A DNA stretch of 64,000 nucleotides from an uncultured bacterium. Lineage in GTDB: Bacteria > Krumholzibacteriota > Krumholzibacteriia > LZORAL124-64-63. The notes under the pieces were generated by a model. It was given only the letters and a program-made list of their open reading frames with translations, was not told the origin of the DNA and made no database searches. Below, piece after piece: positions 21,378 to 64,000 of the stretch. The stretch is from NCBI GenBank assembly GCA_965369705.1, contig CBDURF010000001.1, positions 3,361 to 67,360 on the forward strand. The letters are read 5' to 3'. Every line of letters starts with the position of its first letter. The stretch's first letter is position 1. The position numbers and the translations under genes were made by a program.

Positions 21378-21398
21378 GGCTGCTCCATCAGGGAAGGG

Positions 21399-39068: not shown

Positions 39069-39083
39069 GGGTTCTCCTGTCGG

Positions 39084-43147: not shown

Positions 43148-43220
43148 GCCTTCCGCGTAATCCCCGACGCCGGCGCCGGGACTGTGTCATCCGGAACCGG
43201 TCCGGATCCTGCGGTTTGAC

Positions 43221-43636
43221 GTGAGAAGCCGGTCGTAAGCCGAGTCCTGTTACCGACCGTTCCCGAGGGAAACGGCGGCGACAGTCATGTATCTCGGGCC
43301 GCCGTTACCGACGACCTCCAGCGACCTACCCGGGAGTGATTGCGAGGCGGACCACCTCATCCTCCGCTATTTGGTCTTGCTCCAGGTGGGGTTTACCCTG
43401 CCGCTCCTGTCACCAGGAGCGCGGTGAGCTCTTACCTCACCATTTCACCCTTACCCCGACTCCGGACGAATCCGTTTCCGGACCAATCCGGCGGGGCGGT
43501 ATATTTTCTGTGGCACTTTCCGTGGGATCACTCCCCCTGGCCGTTAACCAGCACCCTGCCCTGTGGAGCTCGGACTTTCCTCGAACCTCCCGAATCAATG
43601 ATTTGGAAGGCACGCGACTGCCTCCCCGACTTCTCA
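43221..43636 (-). ncRNA. rnpB: RNase P RNA, bacterial type A
   Basis: Minus sense contains GAGGAAAGUCCGAGCUCCACAGGGCAGGGUGCUGGUUAACGGCCAGGGGG (P4 region), GGAGCAAGACCAAAUAGCGG and ACAGGACUCGGCUUACGACC. The 5' GAGAAGUCGG pairs with the 3' CCGGCUUCUC (P1). Confidence 0.9.
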
Positions 43637-45366: not shown

Positions 45367-45443
45367 TGGTGGGCGATACTGGACTCGAACCAGTGACCTC
45401 TCGCGTGTGAGGCGAGCGCTCTAGCCAGCTGAGCTAATCGCCC
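45367..45443 (-). tRNA. tRNA-Val (anticodon CAC)
   Basis: GGGCGAUUAGCUCAGCUGGCUAGAGCGCUCGCCUCACACGCGAGAGGUCACUGGUUCGAGUCCAGUAUCGCCCACCA; cloverleaf with encoded CCA. Confidence 0.9.
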
Positions 45444-45494: not shown

Positions 45495-45571
45495 TGGTGG
45501 GCCTACCTGGACTTGAACCAGGGACCGGCCGGTTATGAGCCGGCTGCTCTAACCAACTGAGCTATAGGCCC
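45495..45571 (-). tRNA. tRNA-Met, elongator type (anticodon CAU; a lysidine-modified tRNA-Ile2 cannot be excluded)
   Basis: GGGCCUAUAGCUCAGUUGGUUAGAGCAGCCGGCUCAUAACCGGCCGGUCCCUGGUUCAAGUCCAGGUAGGCCCACCA. G1:C72 is paired, so it is not an initiator tRNA. Confidence 0.85.
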
Positions 45572-49275: not shown

Positions 49276-51711
49276 TCAGCCGGCCAGGATCACCTGGGTC
49301 GCCCCTCCACCGCCCTGTCCGGGCCCCGCTTCCCGGAAGGACGCCACCCGCGGATCGTTCTTCAAGCACTCGTGAAGATGATCCCGGAGGCGACCGGTTC
49401 CGAAACCGTGGATCACGTTGATGACTTCCAGGCCCGCGGGAATGGCACGGTCGATGAGCCGGTCCAGCCTGCGCCAGCCTTCTTCACCCGACTCGCCCCG
49501 AAGGTCGATTTCGGGTTCGGCGCCGGTTACGTTGCTGTGCCAGGCCCAAACCCCCGGCGCGGGCTCCCCGGAACTTCCCGGGGTCTTTTCATCCCGAGAC
49601 CTGGAATCTTCGAGAGGCTGGACCGCCTCTCTTCCCAGGGTCAGGCGCAGGCCGTCGGCGGTGGCGAGGATCCGATCGCCTCGTACTTCGACGACGGTTC
49701 CGATCAGGCCGAGATGGGGAATTCGCACTCGCTGGCCCGGCTCGATCAATGCCGGGGCCGGGATTTCCTCCCGCCCCCCTTTCAACTGCCGGTCCAGACG
49801 GTCCAGGCGACTCCGTGCCGACTTGACCACCGTCTTGTCCGCCCCGGACGCCTTGATTTCCCGCACCGCCTGTTCGATGGCCCGGCGCCCCTGCCGCACC
49901 AGGTCCTCCGCCTCCCGGGAGGCAAGCTTCAGGAGTTCCCGGCGCTCCTTCCGCAGACCGCGCAGACGCTCGTCCAATTCCCGGCCGAGGCTGCTGGTCC
50001 TTTCCGTTTCCAGCCTCACCTCCTCCTGGGCGGAGGCCAACTGGCGCGCCCGGCGATCCAGGTCCGCCAGGAGGTTTTCGATCCGGACCCTTTCCTCGCC
50101 CGCCATGCGGCGGGCCCGGCCCAGCAGGTCGTCCGGGAATCCCATCCGTGATGCGATATCGAAGGCGTGGCTCGTCCCCGGATCACCCACACGGAAGGTG
50201 AACAGGGGGCGCAGGTCACGTTCGTCGTAATCCATGGCGGCGTTGACCATGCGGGGATGGTCGTGCACTGCGGCCTTGAGCAGACCGAAATGGGTGGAGG
50301 CCAGGACCAGGGCGCCGCTGTCTGTCAGCTTGGCCAGGACCTCGAAGGCCAGGGCGGTGCCCTCCTGGGGATCGGTACCGCTGCCGATTTCATCACAGAG
50401 GACAAGCGTACCCGGCCCGGCTTCGGCCATGAAACGGCCCAGGTGACGCAGATGGGCTGAAAAGCTGCTCAGGGACTGGGCGATGGACTGTTCATCACCC
50501 AGATCGACGAGCAGGCGCGTGATCAGGGGCAGGATGGTGTCTTCCCGGGCGGGAATATCCCAGCCGCACTGGGCAATCAGGCAGAACACACCCACGGACT
50601 TCAGGGCCACGGACTTGCCGCCGGCGTTGGGTCCGCTGATGACCAGGGCGCGCTTTTCCGCAGGCATTTCCAGGTCCAGAGGCACGACCAGTTTCCGGCC
50701 CGCGGCAAGGTCTCCTTCACCCAGGGCCTCCATCAGCAGGGGATGACGACCGCCGCAGATCCGGATCTCACCCACGGCCGAAATCCGGGGACGGCGGCCG
50801 CGCACCTGACGGCTCCACAGCATGGGCGCCCGGACGGTGTCGAGCAGGAGCATCACTCCGCAAGCCTCCTCCAGGGCTGAGGCGGCCTGCTCCACGGACC
50901 GGTTGAGTTCGAAGAGGATGCGGGCCTCTTCGGAGCCGATTTCCAACCGGGTCGCGGTCAGTTCGTTGGCCAGGCGAACCACCCCCGCCGGCTCGACGAA
51001 CAGGGTGGCGCCGGTAGACGAGCGATCGTGAACGATGCCCTCGATCTTGCGGCTGTCGCCCGAGCGCAGAGGCAGGCAGAACCGGTCCCCCCGCAGGGTC
51101 ACCTCGTCGCCGGTGGTCCAGCCCTGGGCGCGGGCCCGGTTCATGATCTGTCCGATTTCCCGGCGCACGGCCCGCTCCTGGCCGGCCACCGCGCGGCGCA
51201 ACCGGGCCAGCAGGGGGCTGGCCCCGTCGAGGATGCTGCCGTCCCGGTCCAGAGCGCGGCGGATGGCTCCGGACAGACCGCTGAAGTCAGCCATCTGGAC
51301 GGCGGCTTCACCCCACAGGGCGAACCGTGTACGGTCCGCCAGAAAAAAGGCGCGCAACCGGTCGAGCTGTTCGGCGACACTCGCGACATGGACCAGATCC
51401 GCCCCTTCCAGCCGGACGGGTGGAGGTTGCCGAACGAGGTCCAGAGCCAGGCCGACGTCCGCCAGTGGCGGCCACTGGTCGGCATCGCCCCCGGTGCGCA
51501 ATTCATCGGCCAGGGATTGCTGCAAAGCGATGGGTTCGAGTGAGGCATAAGGCCGGAGGGAGAGCACGGCGTCCGCGGCGGGACTGTTCAGACAAAAGGA
51601 CGCCACCTGGCCGGTGATGCTGCTCCATTCCAGGAGTTCACCGGCGCGGGTGCCCAGGACCGTTTCGCTGGAGCCCTGGAAGGCGGCCATGCGCTCAAGC
51701 AGGTTGATCAT
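49276..51711 (-). CDS. mutS2: endonuclease MutS2 (MutS domain + C-terminal Smr)
   Basis: Walker A GPNAGGKS, DEIGSGTDPQEG, C-terminal Smr (VINVIHGFGTGRL). Confidence 0.9.
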   Translation of the reverse strand: MINLLERMAAFQGSSETVLGTRAGELLEWSSITGQVASFCLNSPAADAVLSLRPYASLEPIALQQSLADELRTGGDADQWPPLADVGLALDLVRQPPPVRLEGADLVHVASVAEQLDRLRAFFLADRTRFALWGEAAVQMADFSGLSGAIRRALDRDGSILDGASPLLARLRRAVAGQERAVRREIGQIMNRARAQGWTTGDEVTLRGDRFCLPLRSGDSRKIEGIVHDRSSTGATLFVEPAGVVRLANELTATRLEIGSEEARILFELNRSVEQAASALEEACGVMLLLDTVRAPMLWSRQVRGRRPRISAVGEIRICGGRHPLLMEALGEGDLAAGRKLVVPLDLEMPAEKRALVISGPNAGGKSVALKSVGVFCLIAQCGWDIPAREDTILPLITRLLVDLGDEQSIAQSLSSFSAHLRHLGRFMAEAGPGTLVLCDEIGSGTDPQEGTALAFEVLAKLTDSGALVLASTHFGLLKAAVHDHPRMVNAAMDYDERDLRPLFTFRVGDPGTSHAFDIASRMGFPDDLLGRARRMAGEERVRIENLLADLDRRARQLASAQEEVRLETERTSSLGRELDERLRGLRKERRELLKLASREAEDLVRQGRRAIEQAVREIKASGADKTVVKSARSRLDRLDRQLKGGREEIPAPALIEPGQRVRIPHLGLIGTVVEVRGDRILATADGLRLTLGREAVQPLEDSRSRDEKTPGSSGEPAPGVWAWHSNVTGAEPEIDLRGESGEEGWRRLDRLIDRAIPAGLEVINVIHGFGTGRLRDHLHECLKNDPRVASFREAGPGQGGGGATQVILAG

Positions 51712-52301
51712 TCAGATTTGGCCTCGCGGGCGGCCTTTTCCACTTCTTCCTTGACCTTTGTACCAGACATTTTGGCCTCTTCCAGAACCCGGTCCCAGAC
51801 CTCCTCCACCTGTCCACCGGACAGACTGCGCACCTGTTCATAAAAGGCCGGCGCCGCGTAGAAGATGAACTGACCCAGAGAGGTCCGGTTGTAGGCGGTT
51901 TGAATGGACTGACCGCCCGGCACCTGGCTGGCCGCCACCAACAGGACGCTCGTCACCAGCGTGCCCAGCGCGATGCCCACCAGGGCGCCGCCCCACTTGT
52001 CCAGCCAGCCCAGGACCGTCAGGCGCAGGGCCTTGCTGATGATGGTGGCGAGCAGGCGGCTCAGGACCAGTCCCACAAAGAACAGGACCGCCCAGGTCAC
52101 CAGCAGGGAGGCCCCCTCGTTCATGCCGGTCTTGTCCATCATCCAGGGCTGGACCGCCGAGGCGAAGCGGGCGGTGAGGACAAGGCTCACCAGCACGCCG
52201 GCGATCTCCAGGAGGCGTTTGACGACGCCGTCCCGGAAACCCAGGATCCCGAAGGCGACGATTGCGGCCAGAGCGATGAGAATTGGAAAATCCATGGTCA
52301 A
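51708..52301 (-). CDS. cvpA: CvpA-family membrane protein
   Basis: Four TM helices, CvpA-like. ATGA overlaps with both neighbours. Confidence 0.7.
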   Translation of the reverse strand: MTMDFPILIALAAIVAFGILGFRDGVVKRLLEIAGVLVSLVLTARFASAVQPWMMDKTGMNEGASLLVTWAVLFFVGLVLSRLLATIISKALRLTVLGWLDKWGGALVGIALGTLVTSVLLVAASQVPGGQSIQTAYNRTSLGQFIFYAAPAFYEQVRSLSGGQVEEVWDRVLEEAKMSGTKVKEEVEKAAREAKSE

Positions 52302-52753
52302 CCCGCCAGATTTTTCTTGACCAGGACGCTCACGCGGCCCCCGTCGGCGCGTCCAGTGGTCCGGACCAGGACCGCCTTCATCACCTTGCCCATGTCCTGG
52401 GGCCCGGTTGCTCCCGTCTCGGCCACCGCGGCAGTGATGAGGGCCGTCAGTTCCTCGTCGGTCATTTCCGCCGGCAGGAACTCCGACACGATTTCCAGTT
52501 CGGCCTCGGCGGTCTTTTTCAGTTCGTCACGCCCCGCATCCCCGAAACTGCTGATCTGGTCCTTGACCTTCCGGGCATAGGAGGAGAGGACCTTCAGGAC
52601 ATCGTCGTCCGTGGGTTCCCGCCGCTGATCCACCTCGACCTGTTTGACCGCAGCCTGCAGCATCCGCAGCACGCCGAGCCGAGCTTTGTCCTTGGCCTTC
52701 ATGGCGGCTATGATATCCTGTTGCAGTTTTGCGGCGACTTCACTCTTGGCCAT
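52298..52753 (-). CDS. GatB/YqeY-domain protein
   Basis: 151 aa, MAKSEVAAKLQQDIIAAMKAKDKARLGVLRM... ATG at 52753 preceded by AGGAAGGA; the caller's 328-aa version is an Arg-rich over-extension. Confidence 0.8.
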   Translation of the reverse strand: MAKSEVAAKLQQDIIAAMKAKDKARLGVLRMLQAAVKQVEVDQRREPTDDDVLKVLSSYARKVKDQISSFGDAGRDELKKTAEAELEIVSEFLPAEMTDEELTALITAAVAETGATGPQDMGKVMKAVLVRTTGRADGGRVSVLVKKNLAG

Positions 52754-52881
52754 GCGCTTGTCCTTCCTGCCTGGTCGGTCCTGGTTTGTCATTCCTGGGT
52801 AAAACCACTCCCAGCGTGGTCGTCGGGGCCCAACCTGTCCATGAAAGACCCCGCCGGGCGCCCTGTCAAGACCGCGCCCGG

Positions 52882-53670
52882 TCAGGAACCTCCCCGGCCG
52901 GCGGCCAGCCATTGTTCGCGGAGAGCCTGGAGGACGATCAGTCCGGTGACAACAGCCGTTTCGGTGCGCAGAACATGGGGTCCCAGGGAAACAGGCCGGG
53001 CCCCGCGCCCGGACATCAGTGAACGTTCGGCGGGCGACCAGCCCCCTTCCGGTCCGATCAGCATGGTCAGGGTCGGAGGCGGATCCCCGGTGGTTTCCTC
53101 CAACAGGGTGGTCCGGATCGCGACCGGACCGGCGGAAAAGCCTGCCTCGCCCGGTGCGGCGCCGAACAGCACCGGATCGGAGGGGCGCCGCCCGAGGACC
53201 TCCCGGACGGACACGGGTTCCGTCAGGTCCGGCAGCCACGAACGCCCGCTCTGCTTGAGGGCGGCTATCATGAGGGACCGCCAACGTTCCTGCTTGCCCG
53301 GTCGAGGATCGACGACCCCGAGATCCGTCTCCAGAGGCAGGAACTCATGAGCCCCCAACTCCACCGCCTTTTCCAGGGCCCATTCGAAACGCCGGCCCTT
53401 GACCACGGCGCAGGCCACCACCAACCTGGGCTCCCGGAATTCCTCACGGTCGATCTCCACGGTGAGGATCTCCACCCGGGCCCGCTGGCCGTCCCGGCCC
53501 CGGGGCAGAGCCGTCAAACGGCGGCCCCGGCCGTCGACCAGTTCAAGTTCGGGACCGCGCCCTCCGCGCAGGACGGTAAAGAGATGGTGGCTTTCATTCC
53601 GGTCGAGGGTAACCGAGTCCCCGGGGCGGGGCAGGTGATCAGGGTCGGTTTCCAGGTAAAACTGGCGCAA
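52882..53670 (-). CDS. rsmE: 16S rRNA (uracil1498-N3)-methyltransferase
   Basis: PUA-like N-terminus; MLIGPEGGWSPAE SPOUT motif. Confidence 0.85.
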   Translation of the reverse strand: MRQFYLETDPDHLPRPGDSVTLDRNESHHLFTVLRGGRGPELELVDGRGRRLTALPRGRDGQRARVEILTVEIDREEFREPRLVVACAVVKGRRFEWALEKAVELGAHEFLPLETDLGVVDPRPGKQERWRSLMIAALKQSGRSWLPDLTEPVSVREVLGRRPSDPVLFGAAPGEAGFSAGPVAIRTTLLEETTGDPPPTLTMLIGPEGGWSPAERSLMSGRGARPVSLGPHVLRTETAVVTGLIVLQALREQWLAAGRGGS

Positions 53671-53700
53671 GGCGTCTCCGGCCGGAAGAAAGAAAAAACG

Positions 53701-54846
<1,146 letters not shown>

Positions 54847-54855
54847 TCGTCTCTC

Positions 54856-55467
54856 TTAACTGGAAATGATGACACGGGCCGGACGCAACACCATGTCACC
54901 GAAATGGAACCCCTGCTGGACGATCTCGATGACCCGGCCGGGTTCCGTGTCCTGGCGGGCGAGTTGCCCCACGGCTTCATGGAAATTGGGATCGAATTCG
55001 GCGCCCATGGCTTCCATGGGCTCGACACCCTTGTCCTTCAGGACTCCGCGGAATCTCTGGAAAATCAGTTCGACGCCCTCACGGAAGCCACCGGGCTCAC
55101 CAGTATCGGAGTTTTCCCCAGCCGATTGCAAGGCCCTTTCAAAATTGTCCTGGAACTCCAGAAGGGAGCGCAGTATTTCGGCCTGGGCGAAGCGCCGCGT
55201 TTCCAGGACTTCACGGCGTGACCGCTTCCGGACATTGTCCAGCTCGGCCACCACCCGCAGCCACTTTTCCTCAAACGCGTCCCGCTCGTTGCGCAGGACT
55301 TCCTCCGGGGAGGGCTCCTCGGGCTCCTCAGATTCCTCGGATTCCACAGACTCCTCAGACTCCTCAGACTCCTCGGCGCTCAATTCCTCGTCGGTGGAAG
55401 CCGGCGCCTCCTCGGCGGCCTTATCATCCGGACGCGGATCCATTTCCTGCTCACGGGGTGCGGTCAT
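54856..55467 (-). CDS. grpE: nucleotide exchange factor GrpE with acidic Ser/Glu-repeat N-terminus
   Basis: GrpE core ...RSLLEFQDNFERA...VQQGFHFGDMVLRPARV. ATG at 55467 preceded by GAAGGAAG. Confidence 0.88.
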   Translation of the reverse strand: MTAPREQEMDPRPDDKAAEEAPASTDEELSAEESEESEESVESEESEEPEEPSPEEVLRNERDAFEEKWLRVVAELDNVRKRSRREVLETRRFAQAEILRSLLEFQDNFERALQSAGENSDTGEPGGFREGVELIFQRFRGVLKDKGVEPMEAMGAEFDPNFHEAVGQLARQDTEPGRVIEIVQQGFHFGDMVLRPARVIISS

Positions 55468-55550
55468 GTCTCTCTTCCTTCGTGGTTCGAACAAACACCG
55501 GCCGGCCGATCCGAGGGTTCCCGGACCATCCGAACCGGGGATGAAACGAT

Positions 55551-56621
55551 TCAACTCGCAACGGGTCCCAGGGTTTCCACGATGACCCGCCGCAGAATCT
55601 CCATACCGTGGAAAGCCCGATGGTAGGACATCCTCCTGGGCCCGAGCACCGCCAGAAGACCCGGCCTGCCATCCAGATGGAACCCTCCGGTCAGGAGGGA
55701 GAACCGTCGCAGCTCTCGGACGGGATTCTCCCGACCGATCCAGACCCTGAATTCGTCCGACGGCACGTGATCGAGCCGGTCCAGGGATTCCCGGATATGA
55801 TGGGGCGATTCCATGAAACGGATCAGGGCTTTCAGGGGTTCCGGATCGTGGAATTCCGGTTCTTCCAGAATATTTCCCACGCCCTCGAATTGGATCTCCA
55901 CGTCCCTCGAATCCCTGAAAAGTTCGCTGCCACCCCGGGCCAGGATCGCGGCGCAGCGGGAAATCGGGGTGCCGATCAGATCCACCGTATCCAGGACACC
56001 TTTCCTTATTTCGCCCACCGTCCGTCCCCGCACCCGATCCGACAGCAGACGCGCGGCCTCTGCCACCACCGGAGCGGGCGTGTCCTCAAGCAGGTCCACC
56101 AGCCCGGTCCTGACCTCGGCATTTTCCAGCACCACGACCATCAGCACCCGGCGCAGGGAGCGCGGGTAGAACTCCACCCGGACGGCCAGGACCGACTCCA
56201 GGGTCGGACCCATGATGATGCTGATGTTGTCCGTCAACCGGCTCAGAAGATGGGCCAAGGCCTTGAATCGGTCCTGGGTGCCAAGGCCCTGCATCACGCC
56301 CTCGTCGACCATCCGGCACAGACTCGGGGGGGTTTCGTGGCGCTGCAGGGACCACCCGGCCAGCAACCGGTCCACGAAGGCGCGGAAACCCGCATCGGTG
56401 GGCAATCGTCCGGCCGAGGTATGGGGCTGATCGAGGAAGCCCTTCTGCTCCAGATTCTTCATGACTGAACGGATGGTGGCCGAAGACACCCGCCGCTGCA
56501 TGAACCGCTCCACCAGGCCGGAACTCACGGCCCGGCCGGTTTCGATATTGAGTCGCACGATGGCGTCGAGAATGTCAAGCGACCGGGAGTCCAAGCTGGT
56601 TTTTCGCCCGTTTCTGCTCAT
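55551..56621 (-). CDS. hrcA: heat-inducible transcription repressor HrcA
   Basis: N-terminal winged HTH LDSRSLDILDAIVRLNIETGRAVSSGLV and an HrcA C-domain. Start ATG at 56621. Confidence 0.85.
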   Translation of the reverse strand: MSRNGRKTSLDSRSLDILDAIVRLNIETGRAVSSGLVERFMQRRVSSATIRSVMKNLEQKGFLDQPHTSAGRLPTDAGFRAFVDRLLAGWSLQRHETPPSLCRMVDEGVMQGLGTQDRFKALAHLLSRLTDNISIIMGPTLESVLAVRVEFYPRSLRRVLMVVVLENAEVRTGLVDLLEDTPAPVVAEAARLLSDRVRGRTVGEIRKGVLDTVDLIGTPISRCAAILARGGSELFRDSRDVEIQFEGVGNILEEPEFHDPEPLKALIRFMESPHHIRESLDRLDHVPSDEFRVWIGRENPVRELRRFSLLTGGFHLDGRPGLLAVLGPRRMSYHRAFHGMEILRRVIVETLGPVAS

Positions 56622-56694
56622 GTCTCTCACCTGGAAAATGCCTCCGGACCGTCCCTGAGGACCGTACAATGCGCCCAAGGTAATCAATGTGAAT

Positions 56695-57816
56695 TCAGGG
56701 TGTCAACCTGGCCAGCCGTTCCTCGATCGTGTCGATCCGCAGGAAACCACGGCCGGTCAGGATCAGCCGTCCTTCCCTGATCTCCCACAAACCCTCCCGC
56801 CGGCCAAGTTCCGTATCCCAACCCCGCCGAGGCATCCATTCCAGCGGAACGCCGCGCCGCGTGCGCAGACCCAGGATCAGCCGCTCCAGCCGACGGGCCG
56901 AAAGGTCCAGGGAATCCACCGAGGCTTCGGGCAGGCATCCGTTCTCCACCGCGTCCCGCCAGTCGTCCAGGTCGTCGAAGTTGGCGTACCGGCGCCGGCC
57001 CCAGAAGCCGTGAGCGCCCGGCCCCAGCCCCAGCCAGGGACGCCCCAGCCAGTAGTTCCGATTGTGGCGGGACTCGGCTCCCGGTCGGGCGAAATTGGCC
57101 ACTTCGTACTGCGGGATTCCCAGGCCGGCCAGGTGGTCGATCACCGCCAGGTACAGCCGCTCGGTTTCGCTGTCGGGCGCCGGCCGCCATGCCCCCCGCG
57201 CGGCCAGCGCGGCCAGCCTGGTGCCGGGGTGCAGTTCCAGGATGTAGATCGAGAAGTGCTCCACGCCCAGGGCCGCGGCTTCGCTCAATTCGGCCAGAAG
57301 ATCGCCTTCCTGCAGACCTGGACCGATGATCCAGTCGGCCGATACGCGGGGAAAGATGCGGCAGGCCCGGGCCAACCCCTTGCGTGCCGTCGCCGGACCG
57401 CAGGCCCGCCCCAGGAGTTTCAACACCTCCGCCTCCAGGCTCTGCACACCGAGGCTGATCCGTGTGACGCCCAGCTCCCGCCAGCGCCGGGCCAGCTCTT
57501 CGGTCAGGGATTCCGGGTTGGCCTCGGCCGTCAATTCGAAATCCGCCGCCAAGGGCAGATTGCCCACCGTGCCCTCCAACAGGCGCGCCAGGAGATCCGG
57601 TTCCAGTTCCGAAGGAGTGCCGCCGCCGAGGTAGCAGGTGGCAAGTCGACGCTTTCCCGCCGACAACACACCGCACATCCTCCGGCGCAGCTCGAACTCA
57701 GCCAGGACTCCGTCCACGTAGCGGCGACGAGTCTCCGGACCGTGATCGGCCGTCCGGGCGAAGTGACAATAGGAACAGATCGAGCCGCAGAAAGGCACGT
57801 GAATGTAGAGTCCCAT
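56695..57816 (-). CDS. hemW: radical-SAM heme chaperone HemW (HemN-like, oxygen-independent coproporphyrinogen oxidase family)
   Basis: YIHVPFCGSICSYCHF CxxxCxxC motif. Confidence 0.88.
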   Translation of the reverse strand: MGLYIHVPFCGSICSYCHFARTADHGPETRRRYVDGVLAEFELRRRMCGVLSAGKRRLATCYLGGGTPSELEPDLLARLLEGTVGNLPLAADFELTAEANPESLTEELARRWRELGVTRISLGVQSLEAEVLKLLGRACGPATARKGLARACRIFPRVSADWIIGPGLQEGDLLAELSEAAALGVEHFSIYILELHPGTRLAALAARGAWRPAPDSETERLYLAVIDHLAGLGIPQYEVANFARPGAESRHNRNYWLGRPWLGLGPGAHGFWGRRRYANFDDLDDWRDAVENGCLPEASVDSLDLSARRLERLILGLRTRRGVPLEWMPRRGWDTELGRREGLWEIREGRLILTGRGFLRIDTIEERLARLTP

Positions 57817-57838
57817 GGCGGCTCCGGCGGAATCCGGA

Positions 57839-58642
57839 CTAGCGGATCAGGTCCCCGATCCTGTTCAGCCGGGGCAGGTGTTTCTCCCCGTTCCAGGACC
57901 AATAGATGAACATGGCATGGCCCTTGATGAGCTTCTTGTCCAGCGCGCCCCAGTAACGGCTGTCCATGCTGTTGTAACGGTTGTCGCCCATCATGAAGAT
58001 GTGACCCACGGGCACGACGAAGGTCTTGGGCATACCGGGCCAGGGCCACGAGTGGTTGCGCTTGTTGCGCACATAGGCCGCCTGGTCGTGCTTGGTCCGT
58101 GGGGCGGGGCAGCTCTCGGGATCGGTCCAGGAAGGCACGCAGGAATGATCGCCGTCGCGGTCCCCGAAGTTGGATTCGTAGATTTCACCGTTGACCTTCA
58201 GGATGCCGCCCTCCACCAAGATGGTGTCCCCTTCCACCGCCACGCAGCGTTTGATGTAGTCCAGGTTCCGGTCGTTGGGGTATTCGAACACGATGATGTC
58301 GCCCTGGCGCGGCTCGCGGATGGCGGGAAGTTTCAGCACCGGCAATCCGTCGATGAGCGTGGCCTTGCCGATCCGGATCCGTTCGGGCGTCTTGGCGCCG
58401 TACAGGAACTTGTTGACGAACAGGAAGTCGCCGATCTGCAGGGTGTCCAGCATGGACCCCGTGGGAATGCGGAAGGCCTGGAAGATGAACTGGCGCAGCA
58501 CCAGGGCGATCAGCAGGGCGGTGCCGATGGCCTTGGCGTACTCGATCGCCGTGTTCTTCAGGGATTTCGGCGGCTTGACCTTACCTGTGCTCACCGCGGC
58601 TGCGGTCTGGTCATGCTGGCGTTTCTTCGATTTCTTGGACAT
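57839..58642 (-). CDS. lepB: signal peptidase I
   Basis: GSMLDTLQIGDFLFVNK (Ser box), MGDNRYNSMDSRYWG. ATG at 58642 preceded by GGGAG. Confidence 0.9.
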   Translation of the reverse strand: MSKKSKKRQHDQTAAAVSTGKVKPPKSLKNTAIEYAKAIGTALLIALVLRQFIFQAFRIPTGSMLDTLQIGDFLFVNKFLYGAKTPERIRIGKATLIDGLPVLKLPAIREPRQGDIIVFEYPNDRNLDYIKRCVAVEGDTILVEGGILKVNGEIYESNFGDRDGDHSCVPSWTDPESCPAPRTKHDQAAYVRNKRNHSWPWPGMPKTFVVPVGHIFMMGDNRYNSMDSRYWGALDKKLIKGHAMFIYWSWNGEKHLPRLNRIGDLIR

Positions 58643-58683
58643 ATCCACTCCCGGCTGATCGTTGACAGGGTGTCGGGTTCGGG

Positions 58684-60489
58684 TCAGCGCTCGATCTTGA
58701 GTACCGCCAGGAAGGCCTCCTGCGGAATCTCCACCGAACCCACCTGTTTCATGCGCTTCTTGCCTTCCTTCTGCTTCTCGAGGAGCTTGCGCTTGCGGGT
58801 GATGTCGCCGCCGTAGCACTTGGCCGTCACGTTCTTGCGGAAGGCCTTGACGTTGGTCCGGGCCAGCACTCGGGTGCCGACGGCGGCCTGGATGGCGACG
58901 GCGAACATCTGCCGGGGAATGAGCTCCTTCAGTTTCTGGCAGAGCTTCAGCCCCCAGCTGTGGGCGTTGTCCCGGTGCACGATGCAGGTCAGGGCGTCGA
59001 CCATGTCGCCGTTGATCAATATATCCAGGCGGATGAGATCGTCCTTCCGGTGCGTGAGATACTCGTAGTCCAGGGACGCATAGCCGCGGGTGACGGACTT
59101 GAGCTTGTCGTAATAATCCACCACCAACTCGTTCAGCGGAAGATCGAATTCGATGTTCACCCGTTCGGGGTCCAGGTATTCCATCTTGGTCTGCACACCA
59201 CGTCTCTCCAGGGATATCTGGATCACCGGCCCCACGTATTCCTTGGGCGTGATGACCGATGCCTTGACGATCGGCTCACGGATCTCGGCGATGTATTTCA
59301 CGTCCGGCAACAGGGCGGGATTCTCGCAGAGCTCAATGGTGCCGTCCTTGAGCAGGACCTCGTATTCCACGTTGGGCAACGTGGCAATCAGGCTCAGGCC
59401 GTACTCGCGCTCAAGTCTCTCCTGGATGATCTCCATGTGGAGCAGGCCCAGGAATCCGCAGCGGAATCCGAACCCCAGGGCGGCCGAGGTCTCCTTTTCC
59501 CAGGTCAGTGAGGCGTCGTTCATCTGGAGTTTCTGCAGGGCTTCGAACAGTTCGTCGTACTGGTCGTTGTCCGTGGGGTACATTCCCGAGAACACCATCG
59601 GCTTGGCTTCCGCGTAACCGGGCAGCGGTTCGACACAGGGATTGTCCGCCAGGGTGATCGTGTCCCCGACCCGCACGTGGCGCACATCCTTGGCCCCGGT
59701 GGCGATGTAACCCACCTCGCCCGCGGTCAGGGATTTCTGGGAGATCCGGTCCAGGCGGAACCAGCCGATGTCGCCCACCTCGAACTGCTTGTCGTTGCCG
59801 AACAACTTGATCTTCTCACCCTTTCCGATCGTGCCGGCGAACATCCGGACATAGGCCACCGCGCCCACGTAGGAGTCGAAGATGGAGTCGAAGATCAGGC
59901 CCTGGGCCGGGGCCTCCGGGTCACCGGTCGGCGTCGGCACCAGGGTCACGATGGCGTCCAGCAACGCTTCGACACCCTCGCCGGTCTTGGCGCTCACCTG
60001 GAGAATCTCGTCGGGATCGCAGCCCAGCAGATCGATGAACTGCTCCATGACGTAGTCCACCCGGGCGGCTGCCAGATCGATCTTGTTGATGACCGGCAGG
60101 ATGGCCAGGTCGTTTTCGAGGGCCAGGTACATGTTGTTGATCGTCTGGGCCTGCACCCCCTGCACGGCATCCACCACGAGCAGGGCGCCCTCGCAGGCGG
60201 CCAGGCTACGGCTGACCTCGTAGTGGAAATCCACGTGGCCCGGAGTATCGATCAGGTTGAGGGTCCAGAGCTCACCCCGTGCATCGGAATAATCCATGCG
60301 AATGGGGTGGCTCTTGATGGTGATCCCCCGCTCACGCTCCAGGTCCATGGAATCAAGGACCTGTTCCTGCAGTTCCTTGCCACGGAGCGTACCTGTGAAC
60401 TCGAGCAGACGGTCGGCCAGCGTGCTCTTGCCGTGGTCGATATGGGCGATGATGCAGAAATTGCGCGTTTTTTCTCGATTGAAGACCAT
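58684..60489 (-). CDS. lepA: translation elongation factor 4
   Basis: [30 protein letters not shown], 601 aa. The caller's 777-aa form is an Arg/Gly-rich over-extension. Confidence 0.93.
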
Positions 60490-60563
60490 GCTGCTTCGCA
60501 TCCGCTCCGGTAATTGGGACAGGGATCGGTTCAATTTCGGTGAACAGCCCTCAAAGATAGGGC

Positions 60564-61229
60564 TCAGAACCTCTTTCGCCACTGGAAAACCACCAACGTG
60601 GGTCCAGGATCGCTGAGCGCGACACCCTCGCCGACCGGGCCGAAGGTGTCGTCCCAGCGGTTGGGGACAGGAACTGGATCCCGATCGAAATTGAACAGAT
60701 GGGCGCCCACGTAGGCATCCAAGGCGATGATCAGCAGCACACCGCCGGACCACCAGGCGAAATCCCGCATCTGTTCCCAGCTCTCCTCCGCGATGGCATG
60801 GTAACGTGTGTAGTTGGGATCGTCCGGGGGAAAGGTGTTTGCGAAATCCCGCGCCCGCACCGCCTGCCGGTCCCGGTTCAGGATGTTGGTCCAGAAGTAC
60901 ATCTGCGTCCCGAAGCCCAGGCCGGCCTTCCAGAAGTTGTCGGAATACAACTGGCCCCAGCCGGGAAAAAGCGGGGTCGCCAGCACCGCGCCGGTGGGAC
61001 TGACCCCGGTGGACCACAGATCCACTTCCTCGACCTCCAGGGCGCCGGGCGTCGGCACGGGGATTTCATCCGGCAGGATATTGGTGACCGTCGTATCAGG
61101 AAGATCGGAAAGATCGGGCACCGTCTGCCCCACAGCCGCGCCGACCCCCACCAGCAGGCACAGGATCAGGATCCCCGGGCCGAAGAGGCCGGCGGTGGAT
61201 CCCGTTTTCCCTGGCAAGCGGTGCTTCAT
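60564..61229 (-). CDS. hypothetical secreted/membrane protein with PGWGQLY motif (resembles Bacteroidetes DUF5683-type proteins)
   Basis: Signal/TM N-terminus; [28 protein letters not shown] pattern. Confidence 0.45.
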
Positions 61230-61242
61230 TCTGCTTCTTCCG

Positions 61243-62148
61243 TCAAGCGGTCACCGGTATCGGCGCGATCATGCGCACGGTCAGTTTTTCCGGAAGAACC
61301 TCAATGGTGTGGCGGCCGGCCGGCATGACCTTCGGTTCACCGTCGAGATGAACGGCCACCGGTTCGGCGCAGGTAAAGTTCAGGCGCGGGCACTGCACCA
61401 CGCTGATTGCTTCGTGCTCGAGACGCTCGCCACGCGAGGCCGCCGGCAGCAGTTTCAAGCCGGTCACCGGACCCACCGGTCGGATCAGGCAGGCGTCCAG
61501 CAGACCATCGTCGTACCGCGCGTCCGGAGCGAAACGGAAGCCGCCGCCGGTGAGGGGCCCGTTGCAGATCTCGGCGAAGAAGAAGCGACCTGAAATTGTT
61601 TCCGGACCGTCGTTCCGCTCGATCTCCCAGACGACCTCCTGCCCCCGATAATTCAACATGGTGGCCACGGCGGCAAGGGTGTAACGGCCGCTGCCCAACC
61701 AGCGCCAGAGGCGGGCGGCCCGACCCGAAACCAGGCCGCTGGCCAGCAGCCCCAAGGAGTTGACGAAAATTTCGCCGTCGAAGGCGCAGACATCCAGGCT
61801 CATATCCTGTCCGGCGGCGATGGCCGCGAGCCCTTCGTCCACGGTGGCGCAGCCGATACCGACGGCGAAATCGTTGCCGCTCCCGGTCGGCAACACCGCC
61901 AGGGGGCAGCCGGTTCCCGCCAGACCCGTCGCCGCCTCGTGCACCGTGCCGTCGCCCCCTACAGCCACCACCAGATCGAAACGGCCCGCCGCCCGGCCGG
62001 CCTGGACCACCGCGTCACCGGGCCCGGCGGTCAGGCGAACCTCGACCTCATGGCCCATCTTTCGCAACAGGTCGCCGGCCTCCTCGCCGCCCAACCGGTT
62101 GCGGGAGCGGCCGGAATAGGGATTGGCGATTACGAGGGAGCGGCTCAA
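61243..62148 (-). CDS. diacylglycerol-kinase-catalytic-domain lipid kinase (YegS/BmrU family)
   Basis: VAVGGDGTVHEAATGL...TGSGNDFA DAGK_cat motifs. Confidence 0.8.
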   Translation of the reverse strand: MSRSLVIANPYSGRSRNRLGGEEAGDLLRKMGHEVEVRLTAGPGDAVVQAGRAAGRFDLVVAVGGDGTVHEAATGLAGTGCPLAVLPTGSGNDFAVGIGCATVDEGLAAIAAGQDMSLDVCAFDGEIFVNSLGLLASGLVSGRAARLWRWLGSGRYTLAAVATMLNYRGQEVVWEIERNDGPETISGRFFFAEICNGPLTGGGFRFAPDARYDDGLLDACLIRPVGPVTGLKLLPAASRGERLEHEAISVVQCPRLNFTCAEPVAVHLDGEPKVMPAGRHTIEVLPEKLTVRMIAPIPVTA

Positions 62149-62196
62149 GGAAATCTCCGGTCATGACTTCGGGCATGAAGAGCGGGGAAGAAAAAA

Positions 62197-62294
62197 TGGC
62201 GGGAATGTGTGGGAATCGAACCCACCTCGGACGGTAAACGCGCCCGACAAAAGGATTTGAAGTCCCCGGCCGTCACCAGACGACACTCATTCCC
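62197..62294 (-). tRNA. selC: tRNA-Sec (selenocysteine tRNA, anticodon UCA)
   Basis: About 98 nt. Anticodon loop CUUCAAA, 6-bp D stem (GUCGUC/GACGGC), 7-bp long variable arm, T loop UUCGAUU, 8-nt acceptor, G73, CCA. Near-colinear with E. coli selC. Confidence 0.8.
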
Positions 62295-62329
62295 GCATAA
62301 ACTCCTGCCCGGGCGCGGGCATATCCAGT

Positions 62330-62713
62330 TTAAGAACGATAGGCCACCATCTCGATTTCCACCAGTACATCTTTGGGCAGACGCGAGACCTCGACCACGC
62401 TGCGGGCAGGCGGTTCGGCGCTGAAAAACGTCTGGTAGACCTCGTTGATGTTGGCGAACTCACCCATGTCCAGGATGAAGACCGTGACCTTGACCACGTC
62501 GTCCAAGGTCAGACCGCCGGCTTCGACGACGGCCTTGGCGTTGGCCAGGGCCTGGCGCGCCTGTTCGGCCGCGGTCGCGCCCACGATTTCCATGGTGGTC
62601 GGATCCAGCGGGATCTGACCCGCCGTGAACAGGAAACCGCCCGCGGCGTTGGCCTGGCTGTAGGGCCCGATGGCGGCGGGAGCGTGGTCGGTTTGGATGA
62701 TATGACGGGTCAT
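62330..62713 (-). CDS. ridA: RidA/YjgF-family enamine/imine deaminase
   Basis: MTRHIIQTDHAPAAIGPYSQA...RSVVEVSRLP; 127 aa from the ATG at 62713. Confidence 0.88.
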   Translation of the reverse strand: MTRHIIQTDHAPAAIGPYSQANAAGGFLFTAGQIPLDPTTMEIVGATAAEQARQALANAKAVVEAGGLTLDDVVKVTVFILDMGEFANINEVYQTFFSAEPPARSVVEVSRLPKDVLVEIEMVAYRS

Positions 62714-62821
62714 GAGCGCATCTCCAGGCTTGGGTTGGGGTTCCGTCCATATCCTACATCGGAACCACCACCATGCCAACGGCCGATCACCCCAACCATC
62801 CGTTCTCGGAGAGCTCCCGCG

Positions 62822-64000
62822 TTACCTGATCAGGGAGATTTTTTTAACCGTCAGCTGGGCCTCGGGTGTCCGTGCCTGCACCAGATACGTCCCTGACGGC
62901 ATGGAACGCCCAAGCCGATCGCGCCCGTCCCACACAGCGGAATGAAAGCCTCCGTCGGTGAGAGTTCCCCGCCAGAGCATCTGGATCCGCCGTCCCCTCA
63001 GGTCCAGCACCTCGAGTGTGACCTGGGTGGCGGCGACGCTCATCACCGTCACTGAAATCTGAGGATTGAACGGATTGGGACTGGCCGCCAGTTCCAGGAT
63101 CGAGGTGGTCACAGCGGGGACTGTTCGGTCAACTACCGACACGGCCGGGCCGCGAATGGCGACGATCCCGCCCAGACCTGCGTCAACGTCGATGAAGCCG
63201 ATATTCGGTTCAGGGATGGCAAAGTAGCTGGGCAGGCTGGTTTCGTCGCCCCAGATTTCAATGGACCCATCGGCATGCAACCCGACCACGGTGTAATACC
63301 CCAAAGCGTCGATGGCCACCAGGTCATGATTGCCCTCGGTGGGGGTCTGGAAGTAGTCGCCCCAGGCAACGATGGTGCCGTCGGCCAGCAGCCCGATCCC
63401 GAAGCCGTTGCCCGCGGCCACGTCCACATAGCCGGTGTTCGGTTCGGGTACGTCCAGTTCGTTCCGAAGATTCGAACCCCAGGCCACGATGGAACTGTCG
63501 GCTTTCAGTCCCAGACAAAAATCATTTCCCGCCGAGATGGCGATGAACCCCGTATTGGGTTCAGGCACCGTTTGATCATGGATCCCCACGTCTCCGATGA
63601 CATCGATCGAGCCGCCTGCGCGCAATCCCAGGAAGTGCTGCCGCCCAGCGGCCACGGCCACGTAGTCCGAATTCGGGAAAGGTTCGAGGGAGTAGCCGAA
63701 AGGATCTTTCCAGGCCACGATGGTGCCGTCGTTCTTCAGCCCCGCAGCACCGTCGTGGGTGGTGGCCACCTGCACGAAACGGGTGTTGGGTTCGGGAACG
63801 TCCGGCAGGGTTCCCCAGGTGGAGATGGAGCCGTTGCTGTCCAGGACCAGCCCGCTGTAGTTGGAATAGGAGACATCCACGGGGTCTGCAGTTGGGGGCC
63901 GGACCCCGCATTGCCCCGAGCCATTACTCCCCCATCCGGCAACCGTGCCGTCGGTGCGCAGACCCAGGCTGTGGAAGTAGCCCGCGGCCATATCAATATA
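62822..64000 (-). CDS. secreted RCC1-like beta-propeller repeat protein with C-terminal T9SS-type sorting domain, 5'-partial
   Basis: Repeated GxxHxLGLxxDGxVxAWG units. C-terminus PNPFNPQISVTV...GTYLVQARTPEAQLTVKKISLIR. Frame is open to the window end. Confidence 0.75.
   Translation of the reverse strand, partial: YIDMAAGYFHSLGLRTDGTVAGWGSNGSGQCGVRPPTADPVDVSYSNYSGLVLDSNGSISTWGTLPDVPEPNTRFVQVATTHDGAAGLKNDGTIVAWKDPFGYSLEPFPNSDYVAVAAGRQHFLGLRAGGSIDVIGDVGIHDQTVPEPNTGFIAISAGNDFCLGLKADSSIVAWGSNLRNELDVPEPNTGYVDVAAGNGFGIGLLADGTIVAWGDYFQTPTEGNHDLVAIDALGYYTVVGLHADGSIEIWGDETSLPSYFAIPEPNIGFIDVDAGLGGIVAIRGPAVSVVDRTVPAVTTSILELAASPNPFNPQISVTVMSVAATQVTLEVLDLRGRRIQMLWRGTLTDGGFHSAVWDGRDRLGRSMPSGTYLVQARTPEAQLTVKKISLIR

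Follow-up and report, generated by a model that had tools for sequence, protein, structure and literature searches.

A conserved selC (tRNA-Sec) gene next to ridA in DNA of a Krumholzibacteriota-like bacterium

The window, i.e. the whole 64-kb stretch of DNA analysed here, contains on its minus strand a tRNA gene (62197-62294) that ARAGORN identifies as tRNA-SeC, with anticodon tca. It is situated between ridA and the gene of a lipid kinase, and Pfam matches bear out both neighbours, which had been named in an earlier inspection of the bare letters (the sequence-only reading). For the genes in 49276-62713, identities come from the Pfam tables of syntenic relatives, with direct matches for the kinase and ridA. 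The features of the locus, in the direction of the tRNA, are:

62751..62779, minus strand: match to a sigma-70-like promoter upstream of ridA (consensus scan, 9/12; pattern match only)
62330-62713, minus strand: ridA (RidA/YjgF/L-PSP, PF01042), directly upstream of the tRNA, with its stop codon 35 nt from tRNA nt 1
62197..62294, minus strand: selC (tRNA-Sec), 98 nt including the encoded CCA (ARAGORN, Rfam, 11 syntenic orthologues)
62287..62294, minus strand: acceptor 5′ strand GGGAAUGA, tRNA nt 1-8, with A8 (62287) opposite A87
62269..62284, minus strand: D arm, 6-bp stem GUCGUC/GACGGC and 4-nt loop UGGU, supported by covariation
62250..62268, minus strand: anticodon arm, 7-nt loop CUUCAAA with UCA at 62258-62260; C27:U45 at the top is unpaired
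62226..62249, minus strand: long variable arm, 7-bp stem from U48-A68 to G54-C62, and linker G69
62209..62225, minus strand: T arm, 5-bp stem GUGGG/CCCAC (100% paired) and loop UUCGAUU
62201..62208, minus strand: acceptor 3′ strand ACAUUCCC, nt 87-94 (A87 is 62208), followed by G73 (62200) and CCA (62197-62199)
62190..62196, minus strand: U-run UUUUUUC directly 3′ of CCA, recurring in most Krumholzibacteriota orthologous loci
61243-62148, minus strand: YegS/BmrU-type lipid kinase (DAGK_cat PF00781 and YegS_C PF19279), 48 nt downstream of the tRNA
60564..61229, minus strand: DUF5683 membrane protein, a backbone gene (PF18935 in orthologous loci)
58684..60489, minus strand: lepA (EF4), a backbone gene (translation and Pfam of orthologues)

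The kinase gene has a TTG start and a GGAG site, and the DUF5683 gene has tblastn and Pfam matches in loci L210, L182, L164, L108 and L192. The T-run after CCA is present in most Krumholzibacteriota loci, whose flanks are otherwise unrelated, and may correspond to a partial terminator or a processing site. The GC content (0.62-0.67) and the nearest named relatives of the kinase, which are from Candidatus Krumholzibacteriota, agree with the high-GC FCB-type genome proposed beforehand.

A comparison of the whole window with 4227 Rfam families produced a match to RF01852 (tRNA-Sec) at 62201..62294 on the minus strand, with 70.6 bits for a gathering score of 47 (E = 2e-12) and covering the full model (1-91); in the Rfam clan competition this model was kept over the general tRNA model. 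The first half of the RNA reads GGGAAUGA GU GUCGUC UGGU GACGGC CGGGGA CUUCAAA UCCUUU, and its second half U-GUCGGGCG..CGUCCGA-G GUGGG UUCGAUU CCCAC ACAUUCCC G CCA. Both programs coincide with the sequence-only reading in calling the locus selC, ARAGORN with identical coordinates, and the tRNA gene finder suggested as a check returned tRNA-SeC and not tRNA-Ser or tRNA-Leu. All the elements listed in that reading are present: UCA in a CUUCAAA loop, a 6-bp D stem, a 7-bp variable stem, 8-nt acceptor strands, and G73 with CCA. The acceptor was likewise correctly described as seven Watson-Crick pairs plus an A:A, which is A8:A87 in the sequence.

The fold was examined in an alignment of 16 sequences from Krumholzibacteriota and Gemmatimonadota. 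In these, 91.5% of the cells were paired, versus 46-53% when the 3′ partners were slid by 1-3 columns, and double-sided changes occurred at 16 of the 25 pairs across the two phyla; none of 500 shuffles reached the observed values. The D stem was paired in 100% of the cells, with double-sided changes at five of its six pairs, and the 5-bp T stem was also 100% paired and largely invariant. Acceptor pairs 1-7 were either covarying or invariant, pair 8 was unpaired in 16/16 sequences, and the CUUCAAA loop with its UCA anticodon was invariant in all 16, with G73 and the encoded CCA kept in every copy. An Rfam alignment in the 9/4 style would add a ninth pair, G9-C86, but 5 of 11 orthologues have A at position 9, so that this pair is not conserved and the alignment was discarded. 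On this comparative evidence, the tRNA folds in the 8/5 arrangement, its eighth acceptor pair being non-canonical. Folding of the single sequence was uninformative for selC, its minimum free energy structure (-41.0; z = -2.05) differing from the cloverleaf (-39.3) by a gap of 1.7 kcal/mol, and the fold was decided by covariation and direct energy evaluation.

The eighth pair corresponds to 7:66 in the 8/5 tRNA-Sec numbering (PMC3711452), and forms, with 49:65 and 50:64, the EF-Tu antideterminant box (PMC11231383). It was non-canonical in 16/16 relatives, where it is A:A, G:A or C:U, but a non-canonical pair was also seen in 50 of 81 unrelated environmental tRNA-Sec of standard geometry (ca. 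60%), and in 20 of the 36 environmental tRNA-Sec adjoining selA, selB or selD; the environmental sample was blind to the acceptor, with restrictions on the T-loop and CCA. A mismatch this widespread in tRNA-Sec is therefore no defect. The A:A that had been singled out as an oddity is real, but a non-canonical pair is the majority state in the acceptor-blind sample, and a mismatch at 7:66 gives no ground for calling a pseudogene or for shifting the 5′ end. We consider it compatible with function, in which it may have a role.

The same tRNA occupies the gap between ridA and the kinase gene in 11 orthologous Krumholzibacteriota loci, and ARAGORN labels every orthologue as SeC. Across these loci the tRNA has a mean identity of 94%, as against only 52-79% for the adjoining kinase. 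No variation occurs in the acceptor, anticodon and T arms, the changes in the D stem are compensatory, and differences in the variable arm are limited to its loop. In 8 orthologous loci the conservation spans exactly from G1 to the encoded CCA, with unrelated flanks, which indicates that the 5′ end is correctly placed. Of the two options offered previously, an 8/5 tRNA with a terminal mismatch or a misplaced 5′ end, the former holds and the latter falls, since the conserved sequence starts with G1 and the mismatch occurs throughout the clade. Comparison of these sequences shows that the tRNA is under strong purifying selection.

Gene order around the tRNA is shared with sister phyla. In the Eisenbacteria locus L213, tRNA-Phe, tRNA-Thr, glmM, glmS, ridA, selD and selC are followed by DUF5683, lepA, lepB, hrcA, grpE, dnaJ and mutS2, with selD immediately 5′ of the tRNA, and this backbone (glmM-glmS-ridA-...-DUF5683-lepA-lepB-hrcA-grpE-dnaJ-mutS2) matches that of the window. 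The order ridA-selD-selC is also found in Gemmatimonadota loci. These selD-selC loci (Eisenbacteria and Gemmatimonadota; L213, L205, L209, L198 and L214-L218) are orthologous to the window locus: they have ridA upstream, and a purine:purine layer 8, either A:G or G:A (G:A in L198). Unlike it, they contain selD in the slot between ridA and the tRNA, and they lack the kinase, whereas in the window that slot does not contain selD and the YegS-type kinase follows the tRNA. In L209 and L198, selD has an in-frame TGA at the position of the catalytic Cys/Sec. The comparison shows the window tRNA to be the orthologue of selC genes that adjoin selD in sister phyla; the tRNA thus "stands alone", as had been stated, in this window, but not in the orthologous Eisenbacteria and Gemmatimonadota slot, where selD is directly upstream.

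The tRNA is followed by the kinase gene in the 11 Krumholzibacteriota loci and in at least 10 Gemmatimonadota loci (at least 9 from a genome scan, plus L108). A contig profile search with the kinase alignment retrieved mostly generic kinase motifs, with at least one close relative and Gemmatimonadota loci among the matches listed. We considered whether selD before selC and the kinase after it could be exclusive alternatives, the kinase replacing SelD. This idea is weakened by locus L210, organized as glmS-ridA-selC-DUF5683 with neither selD nor the kinase, and by the fact that selD loci and kinase loci were each retrieved through the gene that they contain.

The sequence-only reading had found no selA, selB or selD and no obvious selenoprotein gene in the 64-kb window, and a Pfam scan and a check of TGA junctions agree with this. 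No SelA, SelB, SelD or known selenoprotein family was identified by Pfam among the called genes in 1-49200 and the radical-SAM and RCC1-repeat genes, and the Pfam domains of the window genes were complete. There was no in-frame TGA read-through candidate in the window, the same-frame TGA junctions all separating complete genes: at 599, 21399, 34642, 39084 and 53701 one gene reaches its natural end and the next begins. The apparent lack of the N-terminus in EF-Ts is an effect of the profile boundary, the gene start being normal (MDITAKMVKELRE). In the Krumholzibacteriota loci no sel or selenoprotein gene was found within ca. 10 kb on either side of the kinase gene, and hence of the tRNA ca. 40 nt ahead of it. 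In L018 a SelB-like GTPase, situated 9 kb upstream of the tRNA, is IF-2.

SelD was further sought with a 3-sequence profile, a single query of the Eisenbacteria type, an exhaustive search of representatives and 20 cluster look-ups. Among the matches listed in the homology searches and clusters, none was named Krumholzibacteriota and none was on a contig known to bear the locus; these searches return top matches only, so that this is absence of evidence and not evidence of absence. SelA and SelB were likewise not found for Krumholzibacteriota among the matches listed. The SelA, SelB and SelD probes were approximate versions of the E. coli sequences, but served their purpose, as their matches had 40-57% identity. 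A search of the literature found no link between Krumholzibacteriota and selenium.

The gene is an ordinary bacterial tRNA-Sec, well supported as a selC for Krumholzibacteriota. It shares UCA, G73 and CCA with bacterial 8/5 tRNA-Sec (RF01852; E. coli selC; the Aquifex aeolicus structure, PMC3711452), as well as the 8-position acceptor, the 5-bp T stem, the 2-nt linker between acceptor and D stem, the 6-bp D stem with a 4-nt loop and the six-position anticodon stem, and its 7-bp extra arm is inside the reported range of 6-9 bp. It differs in having A:A at 7:66, where E. coli has C:G, in that the top position of the anticodon stem (26:44) is C:U or C:C, and in its location between ridA and a lipid kinase gene rather than beside selA or selB. 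Types of tRNA-Sec with a 12-bp acceptor/T helix have been described (PMC5330540, PMC5389517), namely the '7/5' type with a bulge in Epsilonproteobacteria and Clostridiales, the 'Cloacimonetes type', and the 8/4 type in Actinobacteria and Chloroflexi. The window tRNA likewise has only 12 standard base pairs in this helix, and the Cloacimonetes type is also from the FCB group; nevertheless, it retains 8 + 5 nucleotides, with two purines juxtaposed at layer 8, and does not match the '7/5' fold (PMC5330540), as there are eight residues, ACAUUCCC, between CCCAC and G73. Allo-tRNAs and selC* tRNA-Cys (PMC5389517) are similar to it in the long variable arm, the long D stem with a tetraloop and the overall tRNA-Sec-like shape. 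However, allo-tRNAs are 8/4 or 9/3, as opposed to its 5-bp T stem, and selC* tRNA-Cys has U73 and CysRS identity, as opposed to G73 in all copies of the window tRNA.

We consider it very probable that the selC gene at this locus, from a Krumholzibacteriota-like bacterium, is functional. That it could instead be a relic, a non-functional or decaying remnant in a lineage that lost its Sec machinery, would be consistent with the lack of selD in the slot that it occupies in the orthologous Eisenbacteria locus, with the failure to find any sel gene in the Krumholzibacteriota DNA examined (window and orthologous loci), and with the absence of a Krumholzibacteriota SelD from the protein-search matches listed. 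We regard this as quite improbable, because a relic is expected to drift, yet the tRNA is far better conserved than the adjoining kinase gene (94% versus 52-79% identity), its stems differ only by compensatory substitutions in the D stem, the acceptor, anticodon and T arms showing no change, and the encoded CCA and G73 are kept in every copy. Misidentification of a class II tRNA (Ser or Leu), or of a chance tRNA-like sequence, is effectively refuted: the long variable arm and G73 do occur in tRNA-Ser, but the UCA invariant in 16/16 sequences, the 6-bp D stem with its 4-nt loop, the 8-nt acceptor strands, the best Rfam match to tRNA-Sec (70.6 bits) and the SeC call by ARAGORN in every orthologue all contradict it.

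It is very improbable, too, that the gene encodes an opal suppressor dependent on EF-Tu (allo-tRNA or tRNA-Ser type), which EF-Tu would accept because of its 7 + 5 = 12 bp and which would insert Ser, or Sec without SelB, at UGA. Acceptor position 8 is indeed never a standard pair in the clade, and EF-Tu-compatible, tRNA-Sec-like tRNAs with 12-bp acceptor branches are documented (PMC5389517). Nevertheless, the 8-nt acceptor strands and 5-bp T stem correspond neither to 8/4 nor 9/3, nor to a 7-residue '7/5', the mismatch is also frequent in tRNA-Sec inside selA/selB/selD clusters, and the orthologues adjoin selD. Moreover, UGA is the ordinary stop of 33 of the 50 window genes, so the tRNA cannot be a general reader of UGA, and unrestricted read-through would be harmful.

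With a functional selC, this lineage would decode Sec, and its genome would include SelA, SelB and SelD. The promoter match at 62751..62779 is a candidate for a ridA-selC(-kinase) transcript: the tRNA probably shares its transcript with ridA, and perhaps also with the kinase gene that follows it, and would be excised by RNase P and 3′ nucleases to adopt the bacterial 8/5 tRNA-Sec cloverleaf. To judge only from its identity elements, SerRS would charge it with serine, relying on G73 and the long variable arm. SelA, presumably recognizing the D arm (6-bp stem, 4-nt loop) and the 13 layers of the acceptor/T helix, would then convert Ser to Sec with selenophosphate from SelD, and SelB, instead of EF-Tu, would bind the product and bring it to UGA codons followed by a SECIS hairpin. 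The A:A eighth layer (7:66) would retain the length of 13 layers, and its position is within the box that makes EF-Tu reject tRNA-Sec. UGA-interrupted genes in Krumholzibacteriota genomes may be selenoproteins, a caution for annotators. Neither the frequency of pair-8 mismatches nor the conserved locus alters the current understanding of Sec decoding.

Enzymes of the RidA family quench free 2-aminoacrylate, and SelA acts on Ser-tRNA-Sec via an aminoacrylyl intermediate. If RidA were a functional partner of the Sec pathway in these FCB phyla, its co-expression with selD and selC could detoxify the enamine released by SelA chemistry; we regard such a role as unlikely, and less probable still for the YegS-type kinase. 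The arrangement ridA-(selD)-selC is kept together in three phyla in spite of a differing outer context: in Krumholzibacteriota, Eisenbacteria and Gemmatimonadota loci, the gene immediately ahead of selC, or of selD-selC, is ridA, preceded in turn by glmS in the first two and by secDF-tatD(-fhs) in Gemmatimonadota. This pattern may be explained equally well by dependence of selC on the ridA promoter, or by a gene order inherited without function. The order ridA-(selD)-selC-(kinase)-DUF5683 common to the three FCB phyla is a marker for selC and selD in metagenome-assembled genomes. Around the ridA-selC core, selD and the kinase gene come and go independently, which counts against a role for the kinase.

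ARAGORN identified 62197..62294 on the minus strand as a tRNA-SeC gene with anticodon tca, the very coordinates proposed in the sequence-only reading, and an Rfam search of the whole window against 4227 families matched RF01852 (tRNA-Sec) at 62201..62294 with 70.6 bits (E = 2e-12; gathering score, 47 bits). As that reading also had it, the gene lies between a lipid kinase gene and ridA:

61243-62148, minus strand: YegS/BmrU-type lipid kinase gene (PF00781 + PF19279), 48 nt downstream of selC
62197-62294, minus strand: selC, tRNA-Sec gene
62330-62713, minus strand: ridA (PF01042), ending 35 nt upstream of selC

The RNA reads GGGAAUGA-GU-GUCGUC-UGGU-GACGGC-CGGGGA-CUUCAAA-UCCUUU-U-[GUCGGGCG...CGUCCGA]-G-GUGGG-UUCGAUU-CCCAC-ACAUUCCC-G-CCA. 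All the features previously listed for it occur in this sequence: UCA within a CUUCAAA anticodon loop, a D stem of 6 bp closed by a 4-nt loop, a variable stem of 7 bp, an acceptor stem of 8 nt per strand forming seven Watson-Crick pairs plus A8:A87, and G73 followed by an encoded CCA; the T stem has 5 bp. In single-sequence folding, the cloverleaf (-39.3 kcal/mol) lay 1.7 kcal/mol above the minimum free energy fold (-41.0 kcal/mol), which is not a cloverleaf. In every testable trait of sequence and structure, the gene agrees with bacterial tRNA-Sec. It is a tRNA-Sec of a known kind, no surprise to a specialist, in a candidate phylum for which the searched literature holds no discussion of Sec and yielded no paper linking Krumholzibacteriota to selenium.

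Exact-protein look-ups of kinase homologues gave the loci of ten relatives, and a genome scan listed one more (L003, whose kinase is 56% identical); over the 11 loci, the kinase went from 76% down to 52% identity. All of them share the gene order glmM-glmS-(variable)-ridA-[gap]-kinase-DUF5683-lepA-lepB-radical SAM-hrcA-grpE-dnaJ-rsmE-yqeY-cvpA-mutS2, and ARAGORN found a tRNA-SeC in the ridA-kinase gap in 11/11. The aligned gap tRNAs have a mean identity of 94%, with an invariant acceptor stem (A8 and A87 included), anticodon arm and T arm; position 9 aside, the remaining variation is confined to the variable-arm loop and to the D stem, which occurs in the compensatory versions GUCGUC/GACGGC, GUGGUC/GACUGC, GUAGCC/GGCUGC and GGGUCC/GGGCCC. 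Since position 9 is G or A among the orthologues, the extra G9-C86 pair proposed by Rfam is not conserved and was not kept. From the end of ridA to the start of the kinase gene, conservation spans exactly G1 through the encoded CCA, with a T-run after it, and the flanks are unrelated. Because the conserved block starts exactly at G1, the 5′ end of selC is correctly placed, which rules out the misplaced 5′ end that had been offered as one explanation of the A:A layer. The T-run straight after CCA (62190-62196 in the window; also in L083, L086, L003, L088 and L090) is present in most Krumholzibacteriota loci within otherwise unrelated spacers, and might terminate transcription in part or direct processing where the tRNA adjoins the kinase mRNA.

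Nine Gemmatimonadota loci, among the matches listed in the genome scan, also carry a tRNA-SeC upstream of a kinase homologue on the same strand. Pairs were counted over four unambiguous helices in 16 distinct sequences from both phyla: 91.5% were paired, versus 46-53% when the 3′ partners were slid by 1-3 columns, changes had occurred on both sides in 16 of the 25 pairs, and the observed values were reached by none of 500 shuffles. The D and T stems were 100% paired, and the eighth acceptor position was non-canonical in 16/16 sequences (Krumholzibacteriota, A:A; Gemmatimonadales, G:A; one Longimicrobiales locus, C:U). At the top of the six-position anticodon stem (26:44; tRNA nt 27 and 45, window 62268 and 62250), the tRNAs of Krumholzibacteriota have C:U or C:C, and 13/16 sequences from the two phyla are unpaired there. 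In five Gemmatimonadales loci (L029, L049, L060, L071, L080), 0.7-2.3 kb with little coding signal in most separate the tRNA-Sec 3′ end from the kinase gene (ORFs: 191 aa on the minus strand in L060, 114 aa in L080); these intervals could be insertion remnants at the tRNA 3′ end.

Environmental tRNA-Sec (L093-L212) were collected with a metagenome pattern that fixed both the anticodon and the T loop, an 11-nt spacing and GCCA, and left the acceptor stem free; every tRNA in the sample has an encoded CCA and a T loop of the type GGUUCGAnUCC, so that the frequencies are indicative and no census. Among the matches listed, pair 8 was non-canonical in 66 of 107 tRNAs and in 50 of the 81 with standard geometry, the commonest such states being G:A (11), G:G (10), A:A (9), C:U (6) and C:A (5). 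Pairs 1-7 were non-canonical in 0-3 of the 81 listed, a figure biased to pairing because these pairs alone set the register; pair 8 took no part in setting it. By tblastn with approximate versions of the E. coli SelA, SelB and SelD proteins (matches at 40-57% identity), 36 fragments among the matches listed bear sel genes, and pair 8 is non-canonical in 20/36 of their tRNAs. The 8/5 tRNA with a terminal mismatch of the sequence-only reading stands as an 8/5 form with a non-canonical A8:A87, but not as an oddity: a non-canonical eighth layer is the norm. Pair 8 corresponds to 7:66 in tRNA-Sec numbering (PMC3711452), which a passage in PMC11231383, after Rudinger 1996, places within the EF-Tu antideterminant box 7:66/49:65/50:64. 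A non-standard layer here would be consistent with both EF-Tu rejection and the 13-layer length needed by SelA and SelB, and the A:A layer of selC would form part of the antideterminant.

The environmental tRNAs nearest to that of the window include, among the matches listed, those of fragments L209 (84% identical) and L205 (80%), both directly downstream of a selD of Candidatus Eisenbacteria type (the L209 product shares 80% identity with database protein P0173). At the catalytic position, the selD of L209 has an in-frame TGA (162-164; ...GAG*AAKLGP vs ...GAGCGCK in E. coli), as does that of the Gemmatimonadota locus L198 at its Cys/Sec position (3450-3452), and that of the long Eisenbacteria contig L213 (GCA_046327815.1; 10001-11074) has Cys. 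Many Gemmatimonadota SelD database entries are 322 aa long, as would fit proteins cut short after the catalytic TGA.

The order in L213 is tRNA-Phe, tRNA-Thr, glmM, glmS, ridA, selD, tRNA-Sec, DUF5683, lepA, lepB, hrcA, grpE, dnaJ, rsmE, cvpA, mutS2: the same backbone as in the window, but with selD before the tRNA and without the kinase gene after it. Gemmatimonadota have two forms on one backbone, infB...ribF-secDF-tatD, namely ridA-selD-selC (L198, and again in L214-L218) and fhs-ridA-selC-kinase, and fragment L210 has glmS-ridA-selC-DUF5683, without selD and without the kinase gene. These arrangements show ridA-selC-DUF5683 to be the conserved core, in which selD, placed before the tRNA, and the kinase gene, placed after it, are gained or lost independently. 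Through these comparisons the window's tRNA is tied to a sel locus. Conserved gene order might suggest that RidA, or with still lower probability the kinase, is a functional partner of the Sec pathway; such a coupling is improbable, and ordinary explanations exist. The arrangement ridA-(selD)-selC-(YegS kinase)-DUF5683 is common to Krumholzibacteriota, Eisenbacteria and Gemmatimonadota (window 60564-62713; L083-L092, L003, L011, L018, L062, L108, L198, L210, L213-L218); in the outer context, glmS lies upstream in the first two and secDF-tatD(-fhs) in Gemmatimonadota.

Pfam scans of the window's called genes found no SelA, SelB, SelD or selenoprotein family, in agreement with what had been read from the sequence. 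Several pairs of consecutive genes share a reading frame, with one TGA and a few codons in between:

597-611: Yip1/DUF2752
21378-21401: TamB/UvrD
39069-39086: RelA/Dtd
53671-53703: DnaJ/RsmE

These junctions were rejected as read-throughs, as every same-frame TGA junction in the window divides two complete genes. UGA ends 33 of the 50 window genes and therefore serves here as an ordinary stop codon. No SelD attributable to Krumholzibacteriota was among the matches listed by homology searches, by an exhaustive search of representatives and by 20 cluster look-ups; the taxa listed were Eisenbacteria, Gemmatimonadota, Zixibacteria, Armatimonadota and Fimbriimonas only.

The observations establish the gene, a fold backed by covariation, purifying selection that is strong, and an orthologous relation to selC genes linked to selD; selC is very probably functional. 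Following the established bacterial pathway, SerRS would serylate the tRNA via its long extra arm and G73, SelA would convert it with SelD-made selenophosphate via the D arm and the 13-layer helix, and delivery to UGA would depend on SelB and a SECIS. The gene may be co-transcribed with ridA, because the spacer is only 35 nt long, no terminator-like site was found and ridA is preceded by a promoter-like match (62779-62751).

That the tRNA is a relic, left after the lineage lost Sec, is contradicted by the conservation pattern and is very unlikely. Less probable again is an EF-Tu-dependent opal suppressor, against which stand the 8 + 5 nucleotide count, the sel-linked control tRNAs and the predominance of UGA among the stop codons. 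A class II tRNA called in error has a negligible probability, being excluded by ARAGORN, the Rfam tRNA-Sec score and the 16-sequence pair count. As a tRNA-Sec, the window's molecule is unlike the 12-bp variants, of which the 7/5 type is bulged, with 7 residues ahead of G73, and the 8/4 type has a 4-bp T stem (PMC5330540, PMC5389517); it has 8 residues ahead of G73 instead of 7, and lacks the 4-bp or 3-bp T stem of allo-tRNAs and the U73 of selC* tRNA-Cys.

The closest named relatives of the kinase belong to Candidatus Krumholzibacteriota (e.g., database protein P0019, 76% identity) and the GC content of the window is 62-67%, so the earlier guess of a high-GC FCB-type genome fits. Gene content is housekeeping; Pfam and Rfam scans and translations revealed beta-oxidation genes, peptidases, BamA and TamB, dxr-cdsA-uppS-frr-pyrH-tsf-rpsB, relA, recJ, RNase P RNA, rpoD, dnaG, mutS2, dnaJ-grpE-hrcA, a radical SAM gene, lepB and lepA, those at 49-62 kb being assigned via Pfam tables of syntenic relatives. 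The slot upstream of ridA (the glmS-ridA interval in relatives) is variable: in the window (62822-63991, minus strand) it holds an RCC1-repeat protein whose C-terminal domain is FlgD-Ig-like; in relatives it holds a 627-aa protein without Pfam match plus a SIS/DAGK fragment in L083 (6860-9181) and an OmpA-family protein in L086 (6738-9296). The class A RNase P RNA (43220-43634, minus strand, 297 bits) has two helices with long insertions relative to the Rfam consensus, and a tRNA-Met/tRNA-Val pair (45367-45443 and 45495-45571, minus strand) lies upstream of rpoD-dnaG.
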